Sequence record: KC814930
Length of the DNA stretch: 39,758 nucleotides
Direction: 5' to 3' (one strand)
Source: Shigella phage SfIV
Translations under genes and position numbers: made by a program
The notes under the pieces: generated by a model
Told to the model about the DNA's origin: nothing
The model's database searches: none
Seen by the model: the letters and a program-made list of their open reading frames with translations, nothing else
Shown: one piece after another, positions 10,038 to 39,758 of the stretch
Layout: each line of letters begins with the position of its first letter
Numbering within the stretch: the first letter of the stretch is position 1

Positions 10038-11937
10038 TAATTTTCAGCTGAAAGCCATCATCACCGCTGTTGACAGGCTGTCCGGCCCGCTTAAAGGTAT
10101 GCAGCGTCAGCTTAAGGGATTTCAGAAAGAAGTCTCCAGCCTTGCTCTGGGCGCTGCCGGGGCGGGTACTGCAATAATGGGGGCACTGGCACTCCCTGTA
10201 AAATCAGCCATCACCCTTGAATCGAAGATGGCTGATGTCCGCAAAGTGGTGGACGGTCTGGATACGCCGGATGCGTTTAAGGCCATGACGGAGCAGGTAC
10301 GCGCTTTGTCTACTGAGCTTCCCATGTCTGCAGACGGGATCGCGGAAATTGTGGCGGCTGGCGGTCAGGCCGGGATTGCACGTGATGAACTGATGCAGTT
10401 TGCCACTGATGCGGTGAAGATGGGCGTGGCCTTTGATACCACGGCTGAAGAGTCCGGGCAGATGATGGCCCAGTGGCGTACTGCGTTTAATATGACGCAG
10501 GATGAAGTGGCCGGGCTGGCTGACAAAATCAACTACCTTGGTAATACCGGCCCAGCGAACGCGAAGAAAATCTCCGATATTGTTACGCGTATTGGTCCTT
10601 TAGGTGGTGTTGCAGGTGTGGCTTCCGGCGAAATCGCGGCAATGGGGGCAACCATTGCCGGGATGGGCGTGGAGTCAGAAATTGCCGCCACAGGGGTCAA
10701 GAACTTCATGCTTTCCCTGACCGCGGGAAATTCTGCGACAAAATCGCAGAAACAGGCATTGCGTTTTCTGCGGATCAATCCGAAGAAATTAGCTGCTGAT
10801 ATGCAGAAAGATGCCCGGGGCACCATGCTGTCTGTACTGGATGCGATGGCTAAAGTGCCTAAAGAAAAACAGGCAGCTGTGCTGAATGCCCTGTTCGGGA
10901 AAGAGTCTCTGGGCGCGATAGCACCTCTGCTGACTAACCTTGATTTGTTGCGTACCAACTTCAGGCGGGTTGCGGATTCCCAGCAGTATGGCAGTTCGAT
11001 GCAGAAGGAATATGCTTCGAGGGCAGCGACGACGGAAAACCAGCTTTTACTTCTGCAAAATCAACTTGATGCCATTTCTTCCACGCTGGGGGAAACGTTT
11101 CTTCCTGAGGTTAATGATGGTCTTGAAGCGGTAAAACCGCTCCTTGAGGAAGTGAGAACGTTTGTCCGTGAAAACCCGGAGCTCGTTAAGACCATTGCTA
11201 AAATCGGTCTGGCTTTACTGACAGTGGGGGCCGCTGCAGGCTCTTTGTCCAGAATCATGAAAGTTCTCGGCGGTGTGATGAATATGACGCCTGCTAAGGG
11301 GCTGATTGCTCTTCTGGTTGGTGGCGCTTACCTCATTATTGATAATTGGGAAACCGTAGGCCCTGTCATAAAAAAAGTCTGGCACGTGGTGGATGAAACG
11401 GCGCAGGTGATGGGGGGATGGGAAACTGTTCTGAAAGCGATTGCCCTGTTTATGGCAACCAAATGGGTTGCTGACGTTACCAAATCCATTACCGCAGTGA
11501 CCAGAGAGATGCGTACGCTGGGGAAGGTATCGGCAGAAACGGGATTGATGGGGAAAGGCCGCGGCTTTATCGGGAAGGCCGGGGTATATGGTTTTTTGGG
11601 AACCCTGATGTATGAGCCGGTTAAAGATACTCTGGAAAGTGTTGTTCCTGAAGATACGGTTAACTGGCTGGATAATAAAGGGCTGTTTCTGGCTTCAGAC
11701 TGGACGCCTTTTTTTGATCGTAAAGAGTACGAGCAGTATCAGGCCAGCCTGAGCCAGTACAAACCCAATGTTCCGCTGTTGAATCCATCTTCTTCCATGA
11801 CACAGCACAGCGAGCTGAAAGTCACGTTCGAGAATGCTCCGCTAGGTATGAAGATAATTGATGTACCGGGCAAAGCCGATCCCCTGATGAAAATCACGCA
11901 CGATGTGGGGTATTCCCCTTTTCGTTTTCCACGATAA
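10030..11937 (+). CDS. tail tape measure protein
   Basis: 635 aa, Ala/Gly-rich with long predicted helical segments, directly after the chaperone pair. Confidence 0.85.
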   Translation: MADNFQLKAIITAVDRLSGPLKGMQRQLKGFQKEVSSLALGAAGAGTAIMGALALPVKSAITLESKMADVRKVVDGLDTPDAFKAMTEQVRALSTELPMSADGIAEIVAAGGQAGIARDELMQFATDAVKMGVAFDTTAEESGQMMAQWRTAFNMTQDEVAGLADKINYLGNTGPANAKKISDIVTRIGPLGGVAGVASGEIAAMGATIAGMGVESEIAATGVKNFMLSLTAGNSATKSQKQALRFLRINPKKLAADMQKDARGTMLSVLDAMAKVPKEKQAAVLNALFGKESLGAIAPLLTNLDLLRTNFRRVADSQQYGSSMQKEYASRAATTENQLLLLQNQLDAISSTLGETFLPEVNDGLEAVKPLLEEVRTFVRENPELVKTIAKIGLALLTVGAAAGSLSRIMKVLGGVMNMTPAKGLIALLVGGAYLIIDNWETVGPVIKKVWHVVDETAQVMGGWETVLKAIALFMATKWVADVTKSITAVTREMRTLGKVSAETGLMGKGRGFIGKAGVYGFLGTLMYEPVKDTLESVVPEDTVNWLDNKGLFLASDWTPFFDRKEYEQYQASLSQYKPNVPLLNPSSSMTQHSELKVTFENAPLGMKIIDVPGKADPLMKITHDVGYSPFRFPR

Positions 11938-18588: not shown

Positions 18589-19401
18589 CTAGACACTTCC
18601 GAGCCGCTGATAATATTGGTTTTCGTATTCAGTTGGTGGCATATGATCACTCGAACCATGCCGACGCTTACTGTTATAAAACATTTCGATGTAATCAAAA
18701 ATATCACCGCGAGCTTCTTCTCGCGTTCCGTAGATCTTTTTCTTTATCCGTTCACGTTTCAGTAGCTGGAAAAAACTTTCTGCGACTGCGTTGTCATGAC
18801 AGTTACCGCGACGGCTCATACTGCCCTCCAGCCCGTGTGATTTCAGGAACGACTGCCACTCATAGCTTGTGTACTGACTGCCTTGATCAGAATGAACCAG
18901 CACCTGCTTTTGAGGATTACGTCGCCACACGGCCATCAGAAGTGCATTCAGGACAATATCCTTTGTCATCCGGGGCTGCATTGACCAGCCAATAACTTTG
19001 CGCGAGAACAGGTCAACAACCACAGCCAGATACAGCCAGCCTTCGTGAGTCCGGATGTAGGTGATGTCCGTTACCCAACGCTCATCCGGTGCTTCCGAGT
19101 TGAACTGCCGCTGGAGCCTGTTGGGCGTCACGATGCTGGTTTCACCCTTACGTGCCCGTGGGCTACGGTACCCGACCTGAGCCCTTATCCCGGCACGCTT
19201 CATCAGTCGCCAGACACGGTTAACTCCGCACTGTTGTCCGGTATCCCGCAGGTCGAGGTGGATCTTGCGATAACCATAAACGCAACCCGACTCCAGCCAG
19301 AACTGCTTTATCAGCCCCGTCAGCCTCAGGTCAGCATGATGCCGCCGTGAATCCGGCTGCTGAAGCCAGGCGTAAAAACCACTCGGATGCACATCCAGCA
19401 C
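18589..19401 (-). CDS. IS3-family transposase OrfB (DDE catalytic domain)
   Basis: 270 aa; its frame is open upstream into the orfA 3' end, as expected for an OrfAB frameshift fusion. Confidence 0.85.
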   Translation of the reverse strand: MLDVHPSGFYAWLQQPDSRRHHADLRLTGLIKQFWLESGCVYGYRKIHLDLRDTGQQCGVNRVWRLMKRAGIRAQVGYRSPRARKGETSIVTPNRLQRQFNSEAPDERWVTDITYIRTHEGWLYLAVVVDLFSRKVIGWSMQPRMTKDIVLNALLMAVWRRNPQKQVLVHSDQGSQYTSYEWQSFLKSHGLEGSMSRRGNCHDNAVAESFFQLLKRERIKKKIYGTREEARGDIFDYIEMFYNSKRRHGSSDHMPPTEYENQYYQRLGSV

Positions 19402-19438
19402 CCGACAAAGCAGTCGGACAGGCCAGCAATGGGTGTTG

Positions 19439-19741
19439 TCACGGATAAAGGCGTACCTCAGTCGGACAGCTTTGCGAAGTACGCCGCTGTAGATTCAATA
19501 TGTCCCGTTCGTCGGTAACCCGCTTCAGCTCTTTCTGGAGGCGTCGGATCTCAGCCTGAGCGTCTGACTGGACTTTATTGGTTGAGGAATCCGGGCCATA
19601 TGCCTTTATCCAGGCATAAAGACTGTGGGTGGTGATACCGAGACGTGTTGCCACGCTGGAAACAGAATGGCCGCGATCAACAACCTGTTTTACCGCTTCA
19701 ATTTTAAACTCTTCGGGATAACGCTTACCGCTCATGGGCAC
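19439..19741 (-). CDS. IS3-family transposase OrfA (HTH)
   Basis: 100-aa ORF, N-terminal HTH-like segment, upstream of orfB within the IS. Confidence 0.8.
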   Translation of the reverse strand: MPMSGKRYPEEFKIEAVKQVVDRGHSVSSVATRLGITTHSLYAWIKAYGPDSSTNKVQSDAQAEIRRLQKELKRVTDERDILNLQRRTSQSCPTEVRLYP

Positions 19742-20407: not shown

Positions 20408-21721
20408 TTACTTATAAATTCCTGATGCTACCTTATCCAATATAATTGATAGTACTATAAATATCATTAGGTCAAATGAAAAGTTCATTGCAAAAAGATG
20501 CTTGTCTAAATCTCTATATCCTTCGCCAATGAAGCTAATATAAAACTGAGAGATGCTAAAAGCAGATAATGTAAAGATTGCAACAGAATATTTTTTTCGG
20601 ATAAAAATCAGTGATGCTATCATGGCTATAAATGCAACAGGAATCCTCACAGTTGATAGAGCAGAGTCTTTTATTTTTTGAACTTCATTCAAAAAAACAC
20701 TCTTACTTATTATTAGCTTATTTTCCTTGAAGACATGGAAGTAATCTTCAGTTAATTGGGTTCGAACTCCAGAATCAAAAGGAAGAAGGAGGAACATGGA
20801 AGGTTGCTTTAGCATCAAAAGCAAAGAATCCTTCAATCCCCTTTCTTTATTTTTTGCGAAGCAGGCTCCAGCATCTTTTGTGGTAACAGCTCCCTTATCC
20901 AAATCAAATTTATTTCCCCATGCATCAACACCAATGCATTCGTCCACGGCCCACGATGGATTTTCTTTTCCATTGCTTTTATTGTATAGCAAAGTCCCGA
21001 AATAAAGGGAGTGATAGCTGTTATATTTAGTTGCGCTTGGCGAGAAAAATGAAAATGACAATGCAATTATCGTCGCAATTACCATAGCTAAGTGAAATTT
21101 TTTATCTCTTATGTCAATAAATATTATTGAAATTAAAGAAATTAAAATGGGAATATAGAAGAACTGAGATTTTGATGTGGCGATTAGCGCTGCGCATGCA
21201 ACTAGTAATACTTTATCAAACCTTGATATTTCTTTTTTAAGAATTATATAAGTAATTACCGGAAGTAAAGTGATTACTATTTGCTCCTGATAAAATGCTG
21301 TGAATTGTGAAAGTATGGAAGGAGTAAATAGCAATAATGCTGATACCGGAAATAAAAGATAAGAATATTTTTTATTGTTTATTTCTACAAATAGTTTATA
21401 TAACGCACAAATATACACGATTTTGGAAAGAGATGACCATAACCTAAGATCAAATGTGTGTGTGAATATCGATATAACATAAGCGTATAAATAAAGAATA
21501 TAACTAAATGAGCTTTTATACTCATAGTTCACAATTGAACTGAAATTTTCCTTCAGGGTATAAAGTAATGTGCCATCATGTGAGAACTGTCTGATCCCAT
21601 TCATGAAAGGTGTTATGGCCCTATCGAAGTCGCCATTATTCATCATCCATATGTCAATTGACTCCTTGCACAGTAATGCACAAAAAATTGCAAGGAATAC
21701 ATACCTTATTCTTTCAGCCAT
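20408..21721 (-). CDS. serotype-specific O-antigen glucosyltransferase (GtrC-type, polytopic membrane protein)
   Basis: 437 aa, strongly hydrophobic with many predicted TM segments, very AT-rich, immediately downstream of gtrB and gtrA. Confidence 0.7.
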   Translation of the reverse strand: MAERIRYVFLAIFCALLCKESIDIWMMNNGDFDRAITPFMNGIRQFSHDGTLLYTLKENFSSIVNYEYKSSFSYILYLYAYVISIFTHTFDLRLWSSLSKIVYICALYKLFVEINNKKYSYLLFPVSALLLFTPSILSQFTAFYQEQIVITLLPVITYIILKKEISRFDKVLLVACAALIATSKSQFFYIPILISLISIIFIDIRDKKFHLAMVIATIIALSFSFFSPSATKYNSYHSLYFGTLLYNKSNGKENPSWAVDECIGVDAWGNKFDLDKGAVTTKDAGACFAKNKERGLKDSLLLMLKQPSMFLLLPFDSGVRTQLTEDYFHVFKENKLIISKSVFLNEVQKIKDSALSTVRIPVAFIAMIASLIFIRKKYSVAIFTLSAFSISQFYISFIGEGYRDLDKHLFAMNFSFDLMIFIVLSIILDKVASGIYK

Positions 21722-23197: not shown

Positions 23198-23243
23198 ATT
23201 CGTAATGCGAAGGTCGTAGGTTCGACTCCTATTATCGGCACCA
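23198..23243 (+). other. attP core: 3' 46 nt of tRNA-Thr (thrW-type)
   Basis: attcgtaatgcgaaggtcgtaggttcgactcctattatcggcacca matches the anticodon-stem-to-CCA portion of enterobacterial thrW as I recall it; the 5' half of the tRNA is absent; integrase gene ends 15 nt away. Confidence 0.8.
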
Positions 23244-23257
23244 TTAAAATCAATAAG

Positions 23258-24421
23258 TTACACATCATTAGTACCTTCCTTATTTTTTGACTGGGACAAA
23301 TTTGGGACCGATGGGTTCAGGATCGAGTCTATTTGCCGTGCGTGTTCGGTAAGGTGATTAGGTGCAAGGTGAGCATATCGACGAACCATTTCGATAGACT
23401 CCCAGCCTCCCATTTCCTGTAAAACTGACAACGGGACTCCGGCTTGAACCAGCCAACTTGCCCAGGTGTGTCTCAAGTCGTGAAATCTGAAATCATCAAT
23501 ACCAGCCCGTCTCAGCGCCGCTTTCCAGGCTGTGTTTGCGTCATACCGCATCTTCCTTACTGTTGGCGCTTTCGTTCCGTCTGGTTTGGTACAGCTTTCC
23601 TTGTACACAAATACCCAACGGTGATGATTCCCGATTTGTTTTTTCAATACGCGACATGCAGTATCATTCAGCGCAACGCCAATTGCGCGGTTTGATTTAC
23701 TCTCTTCCGGGTTTATCCATGCCACCCGGCGCTGCATATCTATTTGTTGCCATTCAAGGTTGATGATGTTCGAGCGTCTTAAGCCTGTTGCCAGTGCAAA
23801 TTCAACAACAGACTTTAATGGCTCCGGACATTCATCAATCAGCCTTTGTGCTTCATGGGGCTCCAGCCAGCGGATCCGTTTATTCTTTGGTTGAGGCACT
23901 TTAATAATTGGTGCCTTATCCAGCATTTTCCATTCACGCTCTGCGGCTCTTAGTAGGGCCTTTATAAATGAAAGATGCGTAGCCTTCGTTGCAACGGACG
24001 CTGGTTTTGGCGTGTATTCTGGAACAGGTTTCCCTTTTTTTCTGCATGCTTCTGCCCTGAGTTTCCAGTTTTCCTCATGACGCCGGTTCGTCATTTTCTG
24101 CATTGCTGAATAAATTTTTGATTCAGTAATGTCTCTTAGTTGCATTCCTGCGAAATGTTGAAGCCAGAATCCGATCCGGCTTTTGTCATCGTCCAGTGAT
24201 TTTTTATGTGCTTTCTCTTCAAGCCACCTGACACACGCTTCCTCGAACGTTATATCAGGTATTTCACCAAGTTTGCTGACCCGCCATGCTTCAGCCTTTA
24301 GCTTGTCATGGAGTTCTGTCGCCTGCCTTTTGTCCTTTGTTCCAAGAGACTGTTTAAATCTTTTACCGTTCGGCAATGTGAAACTGGCGTACCATATTTC
24401 ACCTCTGCGGAAGAGTGACAT
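23258..24421 (-). CDS. int: tyrosine integrase (P22-type)
   Basis: 387 aa; N-terminus [34 protein letters not shown] and C-terminal catalytic region ([10 protein letters not shown]...VRRYAHL) typical of phage tyrosine integrases; adjacent to attP. Confidence 0.9.
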
Positions 24422-39349: not shown

Positions 39350-39700
39350 ATGCCCCCACGAACCCCAAAAGCCTGCCGTGTTCGCGGCTGCTCCCATACC
39401 ACCACTGACTCGTCAGGCTATTGCGAAAGCCACAAAAGCGAAGGCTGGAAGCAATACAAGCCAGGCCAGTCCCGTCATCAGCGCGGCTACGGTTCGAAGT
39501 GGGACTGTATCCGCGCGCGTGTCCTGAAGCGTGACAAAGGCCTGTGTCAGTTATGTCTGCGTGCTGGTGTGGTGCGTGAGGCGAAAACCGTTGACCACAT
39601 CATCCCTAAAGCGCGTGGCGGCACTGATGCCGACAGTAATCTACAGAGCCTGTGTTGGCCGTGTCATAAGGCGAAGACGGCCCGTGAATGGCTGAAGTAA
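39350..39700 (+). CDS. HNH endonuclease (terminase-associated)
   Basis: 116 aa; Cys-rich N-terminus and HNH core (VDHIIPKARGGTDADSNLQSLCWPCHKAKT); located just before the presumed cos and the terminase genes. Confidence 0.85.
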   Translation: MPPRTPKACRVRGCSHTTTDSSGYCESHKSEGWKQYKPGQSRHQRGYGSKWDCIRARVLKRDKGLCQLCLRAGVVREAKTVDHIIPKARGGTDADSNLQSLCWPCHKAKTAREWLK

Positions 39701-39758
39701 GAACCAGTTCCCACTGCCAGAGGGGAGGGGCGGGTCAAATCCCTGTGACCTGACGTCT

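Follow-up and report, generated by a model that had tools for sequence, protein, structure and literature searches.

In the Shigella phage SfI (JX509734), direct run-off sequencing of the virion DNA termini left a 10-nt gap, 5'-TGCCCGCCCC-3', with respect to the prophage (PMC3636060). The paper gives no polarity; since 3' overhangs would leave such a gap in both run-off reads, we infer 3' extensions for SfI. In HK97 (NC_002167) the overhangs are 10 nt long and 3', with +1 corresponding to position 1 of the record (PMC11331095; PMC9410871, Fig. 1 legend), and cleavage is assisted by the HNH protein gp74 (PMC11331095; PMC9410871). The second of these papers is inconsistent: the legend to its Fig. 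1 gives 10-nt 3' overhangs, whereas its Discussion gives a 10-nt 5' overhang for lambda and a 12-nt 3' overhang for HK97. The numbers in the Discussion appear to be swapped, and we used 10 nt, in line with PMC11331095. The site of the HK97 small terminase (TerS) extends from +15 to +29, where the protein contacts a G and relies on the adjacent A/T tract, with an ACCCG-like core (PMC11331095). The assembly of the Edwardsiella phage EPP-1 is described as "corrected using PhageTerm" (PMC11043334). For the Burkholderia phage phi644-2, a 10-base 3' extension, 5'-CGCCCGCTTC-3', has been published, and the record of the Stx2e phage phiP27 carries an annotated 10-nt "cos-site," CGCCCGCCCC, directly after GGGAC.

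For SfIV itself, the published values are 39,758 bp and 50.29% GC, and its cos site was given as identical to that of SfI, SfII, and SfV (PMC3851460). Its cos-type packaging, its kinship to these three phages, and its internal attP are already published. Here, we analyzed the complete stretch of 39,758 bp (GC 50.297%), which we call the window, with a focus on the junction that forms when its two ends are joined. Our overall reading, to which we assign a probability of roughly 0.85, is that the window is a re-cut prophage record, that its junction holds an HK97-type cos unit of ~90 bp with the cohesive end at positions 8-17, and that an inverted repeat shared by the two ends is a by-product.

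Origin of the record and adjacency of its ends

The reads behind the SfIV sequence came from genomic DNA of the host strain SFL1522, i.e., from the prophage and not from virions; the prophage was taken out between int and gtrA, joined in silico via its 46-bp attP core, and re-linearized (PMC3851460). Window base 1 aligns to base 1 of the SfV record (U82619 / NC_003444), and window base 39758 to its final base. The first and last homologous bases are exactly the same in both (TCCGGAC... and ...GACGTCT), although the SfV genome has a different length (37,074 bp) and carries gtrV instead of gtrIV. The SfIV record is therefore an in silico circularized prophage, re-cut per the convention of the SfV record, which is the source of this linearization, and it is not virion DNA. 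In a virion-derived record, the packaged DNA has been sequenced and its ends mapped, and the SfIV record is not of this kind. The original prediction had seen the window as a complete packaged genome and not a prophage segment. This holds insofar as the two ends meet in a cos neighborhood, but not with regard to provenance, as host DNA was sequenced and the prophage was circularized and re-cut computationally. An internal and intact attP had been thought to fit a packaged genome. The 46-bp core (23198-23243, plus strand, between gtrA and int) exactly matches the attP core annotated in SfI and occurs a single time in the window. That this core is internal and intact results from its reconstruction out of the prophage ends; being there by construction, it therefore provides no independent evidence on the physical form of the DNA, and this argument falls away. 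No tRNA genes were found within the window.

The ORF coordinates in Table S1 of the SfIV paper (68..562; c20408..21721; c23258..24421; 39350..39700) are those of the window ORFs, which, along with the agreement in length and GC content, identifies the window as the SfIV record KC814930. They correspond to the small terminase gene terS (orf-1, 68-562, plus strand), the gene for the 437-aa GtrIV (20408-21721, minus strand), the integrase gene (23258-24421, minus strand), and an HNH endonuclease gene (orf-54, 39350-39700, plus strand), which is the last gene ahead of cos. The same table lists an ISEhe3-type insertion sequence (orfA/orfB transposase), located at window positions 18589-19735 between the tail-fiber genes and the gtr cluster. 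With its ATG at 68, terS starts 67 nt from the beginning of the window, and the window ends 58 nt past the HNH gene, both as predicted. The order HNH - cos - terS - terL, with cos spanning the junction, bears out the HK97-type cos neighborhood proposed for the window ends.

SfIV TerS belongs to the P27 family (Pfam PF05119, Terminase_4; E-value 2.3e-21, 76.5 bits; cut-off, 24.7). The large terminase gene terL (559-2292, plus strand) encodes an HK97-type protein with ATPase and nuclease domains (PF03354, PF20441). It matches HK97 gp2 with 26% identity over ~520 aa (BLASTP E-value 4e-31), and the Pfam domains are common to both. The HNH protein (PF01844, E-value 4e-16) is 38% identical to HK97 gp74 over 65 aa (E-value 1e-10), with both proteins matching PF01844, and it has a full-length match to the HNH endonuclease of PDB entry 5h0m (E-value 2.8e-12). 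Portal, protease, and capsid are also of HK97 type, as judged by Pfam and BLASTP. SfIV TerS, in contrast, showed no BLASTP similarity to HK97 gp1, which itself matches no Pfam family, and no match to PDB by sequence; its single-sequence AlphaFold model had a pLDDT of 38.8 and a pTM of 0.18. The lambda terminase proteins Nu1 and gpA belong to families other than those of the SfIV terminase, and Pfam detected no lambda-type terminase families in SfIV, giving only Terminase_4 and TerL_ATPase/TerL_nuclease.

A gene for an HNH protein occupies the equivalent position in phiP27, EPP-1, phi644-2, and a Klebsiella phage. In the SfIV paper, orf-54 was hypothesized to control the timing of lysis (PMC3851460). 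Because of its homology to gp74, its match to 5h0m, and the placement of its counterparts directly upstream of cos in phiP27, phi644-2, and EPP-1, we consider it a packaging-associated HNH protein, likely the nuclease partner of TerL rather than a lysis timer. In the Klebsiella phage ST101-KPC2phi6.3 (L003, MK416017), the plus-strand ORF at 1056-1433 is an unannotated HNH endonuclease (PF01844, E-value 3.7e-15), where the annotation has instead a hypothetical minus-strand ORF (locus 1146-1499) with no Pfam match; the latter is probably a wrong-strand gene call.

In nature, the two ends of the window do lie side by side. Of 80 IMG/VR relatives, 72 carry the 60-nt junction uninterrupted with at most four mismatches, 29 of them exactly. 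The junction is likewise unbroken in a Shigella flexneri chromosome (L013), within long chromosomal contigs (prophages) of many Enterobacterales, and in the permuted records of SKA5, vB_EcoM-720R4, S.Typ Adana, and a Klebsiella phage.

Two of the records searched deserve mention in their own right. The IMG/VR sequence IMGVR_UViG_2571042487_000016 (L054), with 39,757 nt one base shorter than the window, encodes, midway along the contig, a TerS with 100% identity and is probably the same phage in another permutation. The Salmonella phage 118970_sal3 (KU927493.2, L009), of 77,375 bp, has two matches to the HNH/cos region, at ~37.7 kb and ~77.3 kb, with the 10-mer TGCCCGCCTC. Its size is about twice that of its relatives, and this "complete genome" may consist of two concatenated prophage-like genomes.

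Probable position of the cohesive end

The 10-mer identical to the SfI run-off gap lies at positions 8-17 of the window (plus strand), where we predict a 10-nt cohesive end with a 3' single-stranded extension. SfI and SfIV are nearly identical over the ~125-nt HNH-terS intergenic region and share the 10-mer, the HNH, TerS, and TerL genes, and the attP core; a single base differs just past the 10-mer (GTCG vs. ATCG). The SfI record was cut right after the 10-mer, so that it ends with TGCCCGCCCC and begins at the homolog of window position 18, whereas the window was cut 17 nt earlier.

Ends mapped or annotated in other phages fall on the homologous 10-mer as well. The HK97 record ends with ...TGAC followed by CGCCGCCAAA, the EPP-1 record with ...GTAC followed by TGCCCGCCTC, and the phi644-2 record with ...GGAC followed by its published extension, which is the positional homolog of the window 10-mer; together with SfI and phiP27, five phages thus share this position. 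To place HK97 in the same register, we derived a position weight matrix spanning the G-run through the 10-mer from 38 prophage cos regions and scanned the circular HK97 genome on both strands. The sole positive match scored 31.2 bits at 39679, with the next best at -11.7 and a background of -78 +/- 15.5. In this register, the family 10-mer falls on HK97 positions 39723-39732, which are the last 10 nt of the HK97 record. A literature search for TGCCCGCCCC and the other 10-mers returned unrelated primer matches only.

The real cohesive end of SfIV is thus very probably at 8-17 and not at the window edge. By homology, nicking would occur at 17/18 on the top strand and at 7/8 on the bottom strand, yielding 10-nt 3' extensions. 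Because the ends of five phages fall on the homologous 10-mer, the physical ends would be set in from the left edge of the window, by 7 nt on the bottom strand and by 17 nt on the top strand.

The original prediction had read the window ends themselves as cos termini. If positions 39758 and 1 were the true virion DNA termini, the overhang would begin or end there. The SfV record does begin and end at the same homologous bases, a note on SfII sets "cos" at bp 59-125, equivalent to window 1-67, and the convention might trace back to an experimental observation on SfV. The SfI authors, however, speak of the SfV cos mechanism only as "postulated" (PMC3636060), and the SfIV ends were picked in silico. 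The boundary precedes the 10-mer by 7 nt and falls in a weakly conserved segment between conserved blocks, while the virion-mapped ends of SfI, and those of HK97, phi644-2, EPP-1, and phiP27, are all at the 10-mer. We therefore regard true termini at the window edges as very unlikely, and retain the cohesive end at 8-17. That the SfIV and SfV records start off the physical end is relevant to the design of cos plasmids, to end mapping, and to the interpretation of PhageTerm results; its value is mostly one of annotation hygiene.

Architecture of the cos unit

We aligned 40 distinct cos regions on the invariant anchor CCGCGAAA and obtained an alignment without a single gap over ~95 nt. The relatives include Shigella, Salmonella, Klebsiella, Citrobacter, Serratia, Xenorhabdus, Photorhabdus, Morganella, Gilliamella, and Cupriavidus. 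Joining the window ends reconstitutes a genuine HK97-type cos site, which is rigid, ~90 bp long, and composed of four parts: the G-run with TCAAATC (39722-39745), a 24-nt segment ending in GGAC, the 10-mer TGCCCGCCCC (8-17), and the ATACCCGCGAAAAATGAAATTTAA block (23-52). Conservation is concentrated in three blocks, namely, the G-run with (T)CAAATCxCT (39722-39745), G[GT]AC with xGCCxxC... (4-14), and aTTTTTAtacCCGCGAAAAATGAAaTTtAA (23-52).

The left block (39722-39745, plus strand; -54 to -31 from the predicted top-strand nick) consists of the G-run followed by TCAAATCCCT, includes GGGGCGGG (39727-39734), and is conserved in the 40 gapless-aligned relatives. In 36 of 38 loci, 54 nt separate its AAAT from the CCGCGAAA anchor, and HK97 has the same block (GGGGGGGGGATCAAATC) at identical spacing. 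By analogy with lambda cosQ, it may act as a positioning or termination signal on the TerL/HNH side. From TCAAATC to the 10-mer runs the 24-nt segment, whose first part (39746-39758, plus strand) continues at 1-7; its sequence varies with low information content, but its length is fixed, with zero indels among the 40 relatives. The end of this segment (1-7, plus strand), TCC plus the conserved G[GT]AC at 4-7, abuts the 5' side of the 10-mer at the predicted bottom-strand nick. G[GT]AC precedes the 10-mer in SfI, EPP-1, phi644-2, phiP27, and HK97 (in HK97 as GAC).

The right block, TTTTTTATACCCGCGAAAAATGAAATTTAA (23-52, plus strand), hardly varies among phages ranging from those of Shigella to those of Cupriavidus and Burkholderia. 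It is 28 nt from G[GT]AC in 37 of 38 loci, whereas the terS start lies anywhere from 30 to 102 nt away. The constant spacings of 28 and 54 nt, compared with the variable distance to terS, indicate one rigid unit tied to cleavage, and not a translation signal of terS. Every phage with a P27-type TerS that we examined (phiP27, phi644-2, EPP-1) carries the right block. Like SfIV, phi644-2 / phiE125, phiP27, and EPP-1 have the HNH gene directly upstream of cos and the block, as CCCGCGAAA(A/T)..., at equal distance. They differ from SfIV in host, tail type, and 10-mer (CGCCCGCTTC, CGCCCGCCCC, and TGCCCGCCTC in phi644-2, phiP27, and EPP-1, respectively), and in phi644-2 the left block is degenerate. 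We also considered an IHF-like site in TCAAATCCCTG; judged by eye, it departs from the IHF consensus, WATCAANNNNTTR.

HK97 shares with SfIV the order HNH - cos - terS - terL, homologous TerL and HNH proteins, and HK97-fold head genes, although HK97 is a siphovirus and SfIV has a Mu-like contractile tail. At the DNA level, the G-run with TCAAATC, the 24-nt segment, and GAC plus the 10-mer are common to both. The differences are in the 10-mer sequence (CGCCGCCAAA in HK97), in TerS, which is unrelated in sequence, and in the right-hand block. HK97 has CTAACCCGATTTTTT there, whose ACCCG core is 4 nt more distant from the nick than in SfIV; the SfIV-type right block is absent, and a matrix for it scored at best about -5 in HK97. 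Hence, the homology of TerL and HNH but not of TerS is paralleled in the DNA, where the left block and nick region are common to the two phages but the right block is not. The interval +15 to +29, which contains the TerS site in HK97, corresponds in SfIV to window 32-46 (CCCGCGAAAAATGAA) and falls inside the right block. For this reason, we assign the right block to TerS, as a putative recognition site of the P27 family equivalent to cosB, and the left block and nick region would be read by TerL and HNH. By this analogy, and from the conservation of the block, TerS binding at 23-52 appears plausible. We know of no protein-DNA structure for P27-family small terminases, and the three-block architecture offers candidate sites for their biochemistry.

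By homology with HK97, the following course of packaging can be proposed. TerS would bind the right block on concatemeric DNA; TerL, aided by the HNH endonuclease encoded next to cos, would then nick the top strand at 17/18 and the bottom strand at 7/8, producing the 10-nt 3' cohesive ends; and packaging would run from the terS side toward the HNH side, up to the next cos. The lambda cos site (cosQ - cosN - cosB) has a 12-nt 5' overhang and a partly symmetric cosN, and is cut by the Nu1/gpA terminase with no HNH partner. SfIV resembles lambda in that its site has several parts, with an element upstream, a place for nicking, and a binding site for the small terminase downstream, and in that packaging would proceed processively from cos to cos. 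It differs in its overhang, 10 nt and 3' by homology, and in showing no two-fold symmetry at the nicks.

The inverted repeat and mosaic relatives

An imperfect inverted repeat between the two ends had also been pointed out. Both strings exist, with coordinates shifted by 1-2 nt: GGGGCGGGTC is at 39727-39736 (not 39729-39738) and GACTGCCCGCCCC at 5-17 (not 6-18). Exact complementarity is limited to 8 bp, pairing GGGGCGGG (39727-39734) with CCCGCCCC (10-17), and extending it by GA/TC takes a 3-nt indel. When segments of 58 and 67 nt were compared, 155 of 5000 mononucleotide shuffles contained an exact inverted match of this length or longer, as did 236 of 5000 random pairs of window segments; the repeat is thus only marginally above chance (P roughly 0.03-0.05). 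GGGGCGGG also occurs at 10159.

As in lambda, such a repeat could be a functional two-fold symmetric, cosN-like element for a symmetric terminase dimer. Beyond the exact 8-bp match itself, the one finding in this direction comes from three Gilliamella prophages (L044, L046, L048), in which the left block and the 10-mer share an 8-bp complementarity of their own, TAGGGGGG / CCCCCCTA, at almost the register of the window. We consider this coincidental given the G- and C-rich composition of the two regions, and it is the sole hint of covariation. Against the idea, besides the 3%-5% chance expectation, stands the geometry: once the ends are joined, 33 nt separate the arms, and the right arm lies inside the cohesive 10-mer, i.e., it is the overhang itself, so that the repeat is not centered on the cleavage sites. 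Conservation argues in the same direction. Among the 40 relatives, the longest stretch of complementarity linking the left block to the cohesive-end region has practically the same mean within loci (5.47) as between unrelated loci (5.33). Of 43 distinct sequences, just 7 retain all eight pairs, and 26 have GG or CC as the central pair. Six recombinant relatives (L074, L104, L105, L110, L122, L131) keep the right side and TerS but have GGGGGAGG where the window has GGGGCGGG, and equivalent complementarity is absent from HK97. The suggestion that the two ends would join into a symmetric cosN is therefore not sustained on the sequence, with no covariation, arms off-center, and no repeat in recombinants that keep the 10-mer and TerS, and a recognition element of this kind is very improbable. 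The inverted repeat is a by-product of a G-rich left block facing a C-rich cohesive end, not a recognition palindrome.

We give equally little credit to an explanation unrelated to packaging, in which the GC-rich arms and the T-run at 22-28 form a terminator or another RNA hairpin between the HNH gene and terS. The joined 75-nt RNA does pair the arms, at -29.5 kcal/mol, with TTTTTTT 4 nt past the stem. This stability is unexceptional, however (z-score -1.78; 11 of 200 shuffles as stable), and a loop of ~33 nt is much too long for a terminator. Scanning the two window ends and the contiguous Shigella flexneri junction for promoters and terminators gave nothing at the junction, and no terminator was predicted in either place. 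RNAalifold on 42 relatives found almost no consensus structure (-1.75 kcal/mol), and the T-run is part of a block with fixed spacing to the cleavage motif. Headful (pac) packaging, which would deprive the window ends of physical meaning, is most improbable: a record built from a prophage cannot prove cos ends by sequence alone, but nothing specific speaks for a headful mechanism, and against it are the HK97-type TerL and HNH, the conserved rigid cos unit, the defined ends with a 10-nt gap in the near-identical SfI, and the lack of terminal redundancy or direct repeats in the window (longest common direct run of 8 between the first and last 300 nt).

In the six IMG/VR recombinants named above, the TerS side matches the window from about CCTTCCGGAC onward (~1110-1140 in each), and TerS is 99%-100% identical to that of the window, while the left side consists of a Citrobacter/Kluyvera-like HNH gene and left cos block. 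As the left and right affinities differ, a mosaic joint must lie inside the poorly conserved part of cos (window 39746-39758 and 1-3). We tentatively propose, with somewhat less than even confidence, that the cos unit is modular across Proteobacterial phages. The left block and GAC plus the 10-mer would travel with TerL and HNH, and the right block with the TerS family; the left block (-54 to -31) would be an uncharacterized cosQ-like signal read by TerL or HNH, and the poorly conserved portion of the 24-nt segment would serve as a preferred recombination joint for swaps of packaging specificity. Two of the six recombinants, L074 and L122, differ from the window at the first base of the 10-mer.
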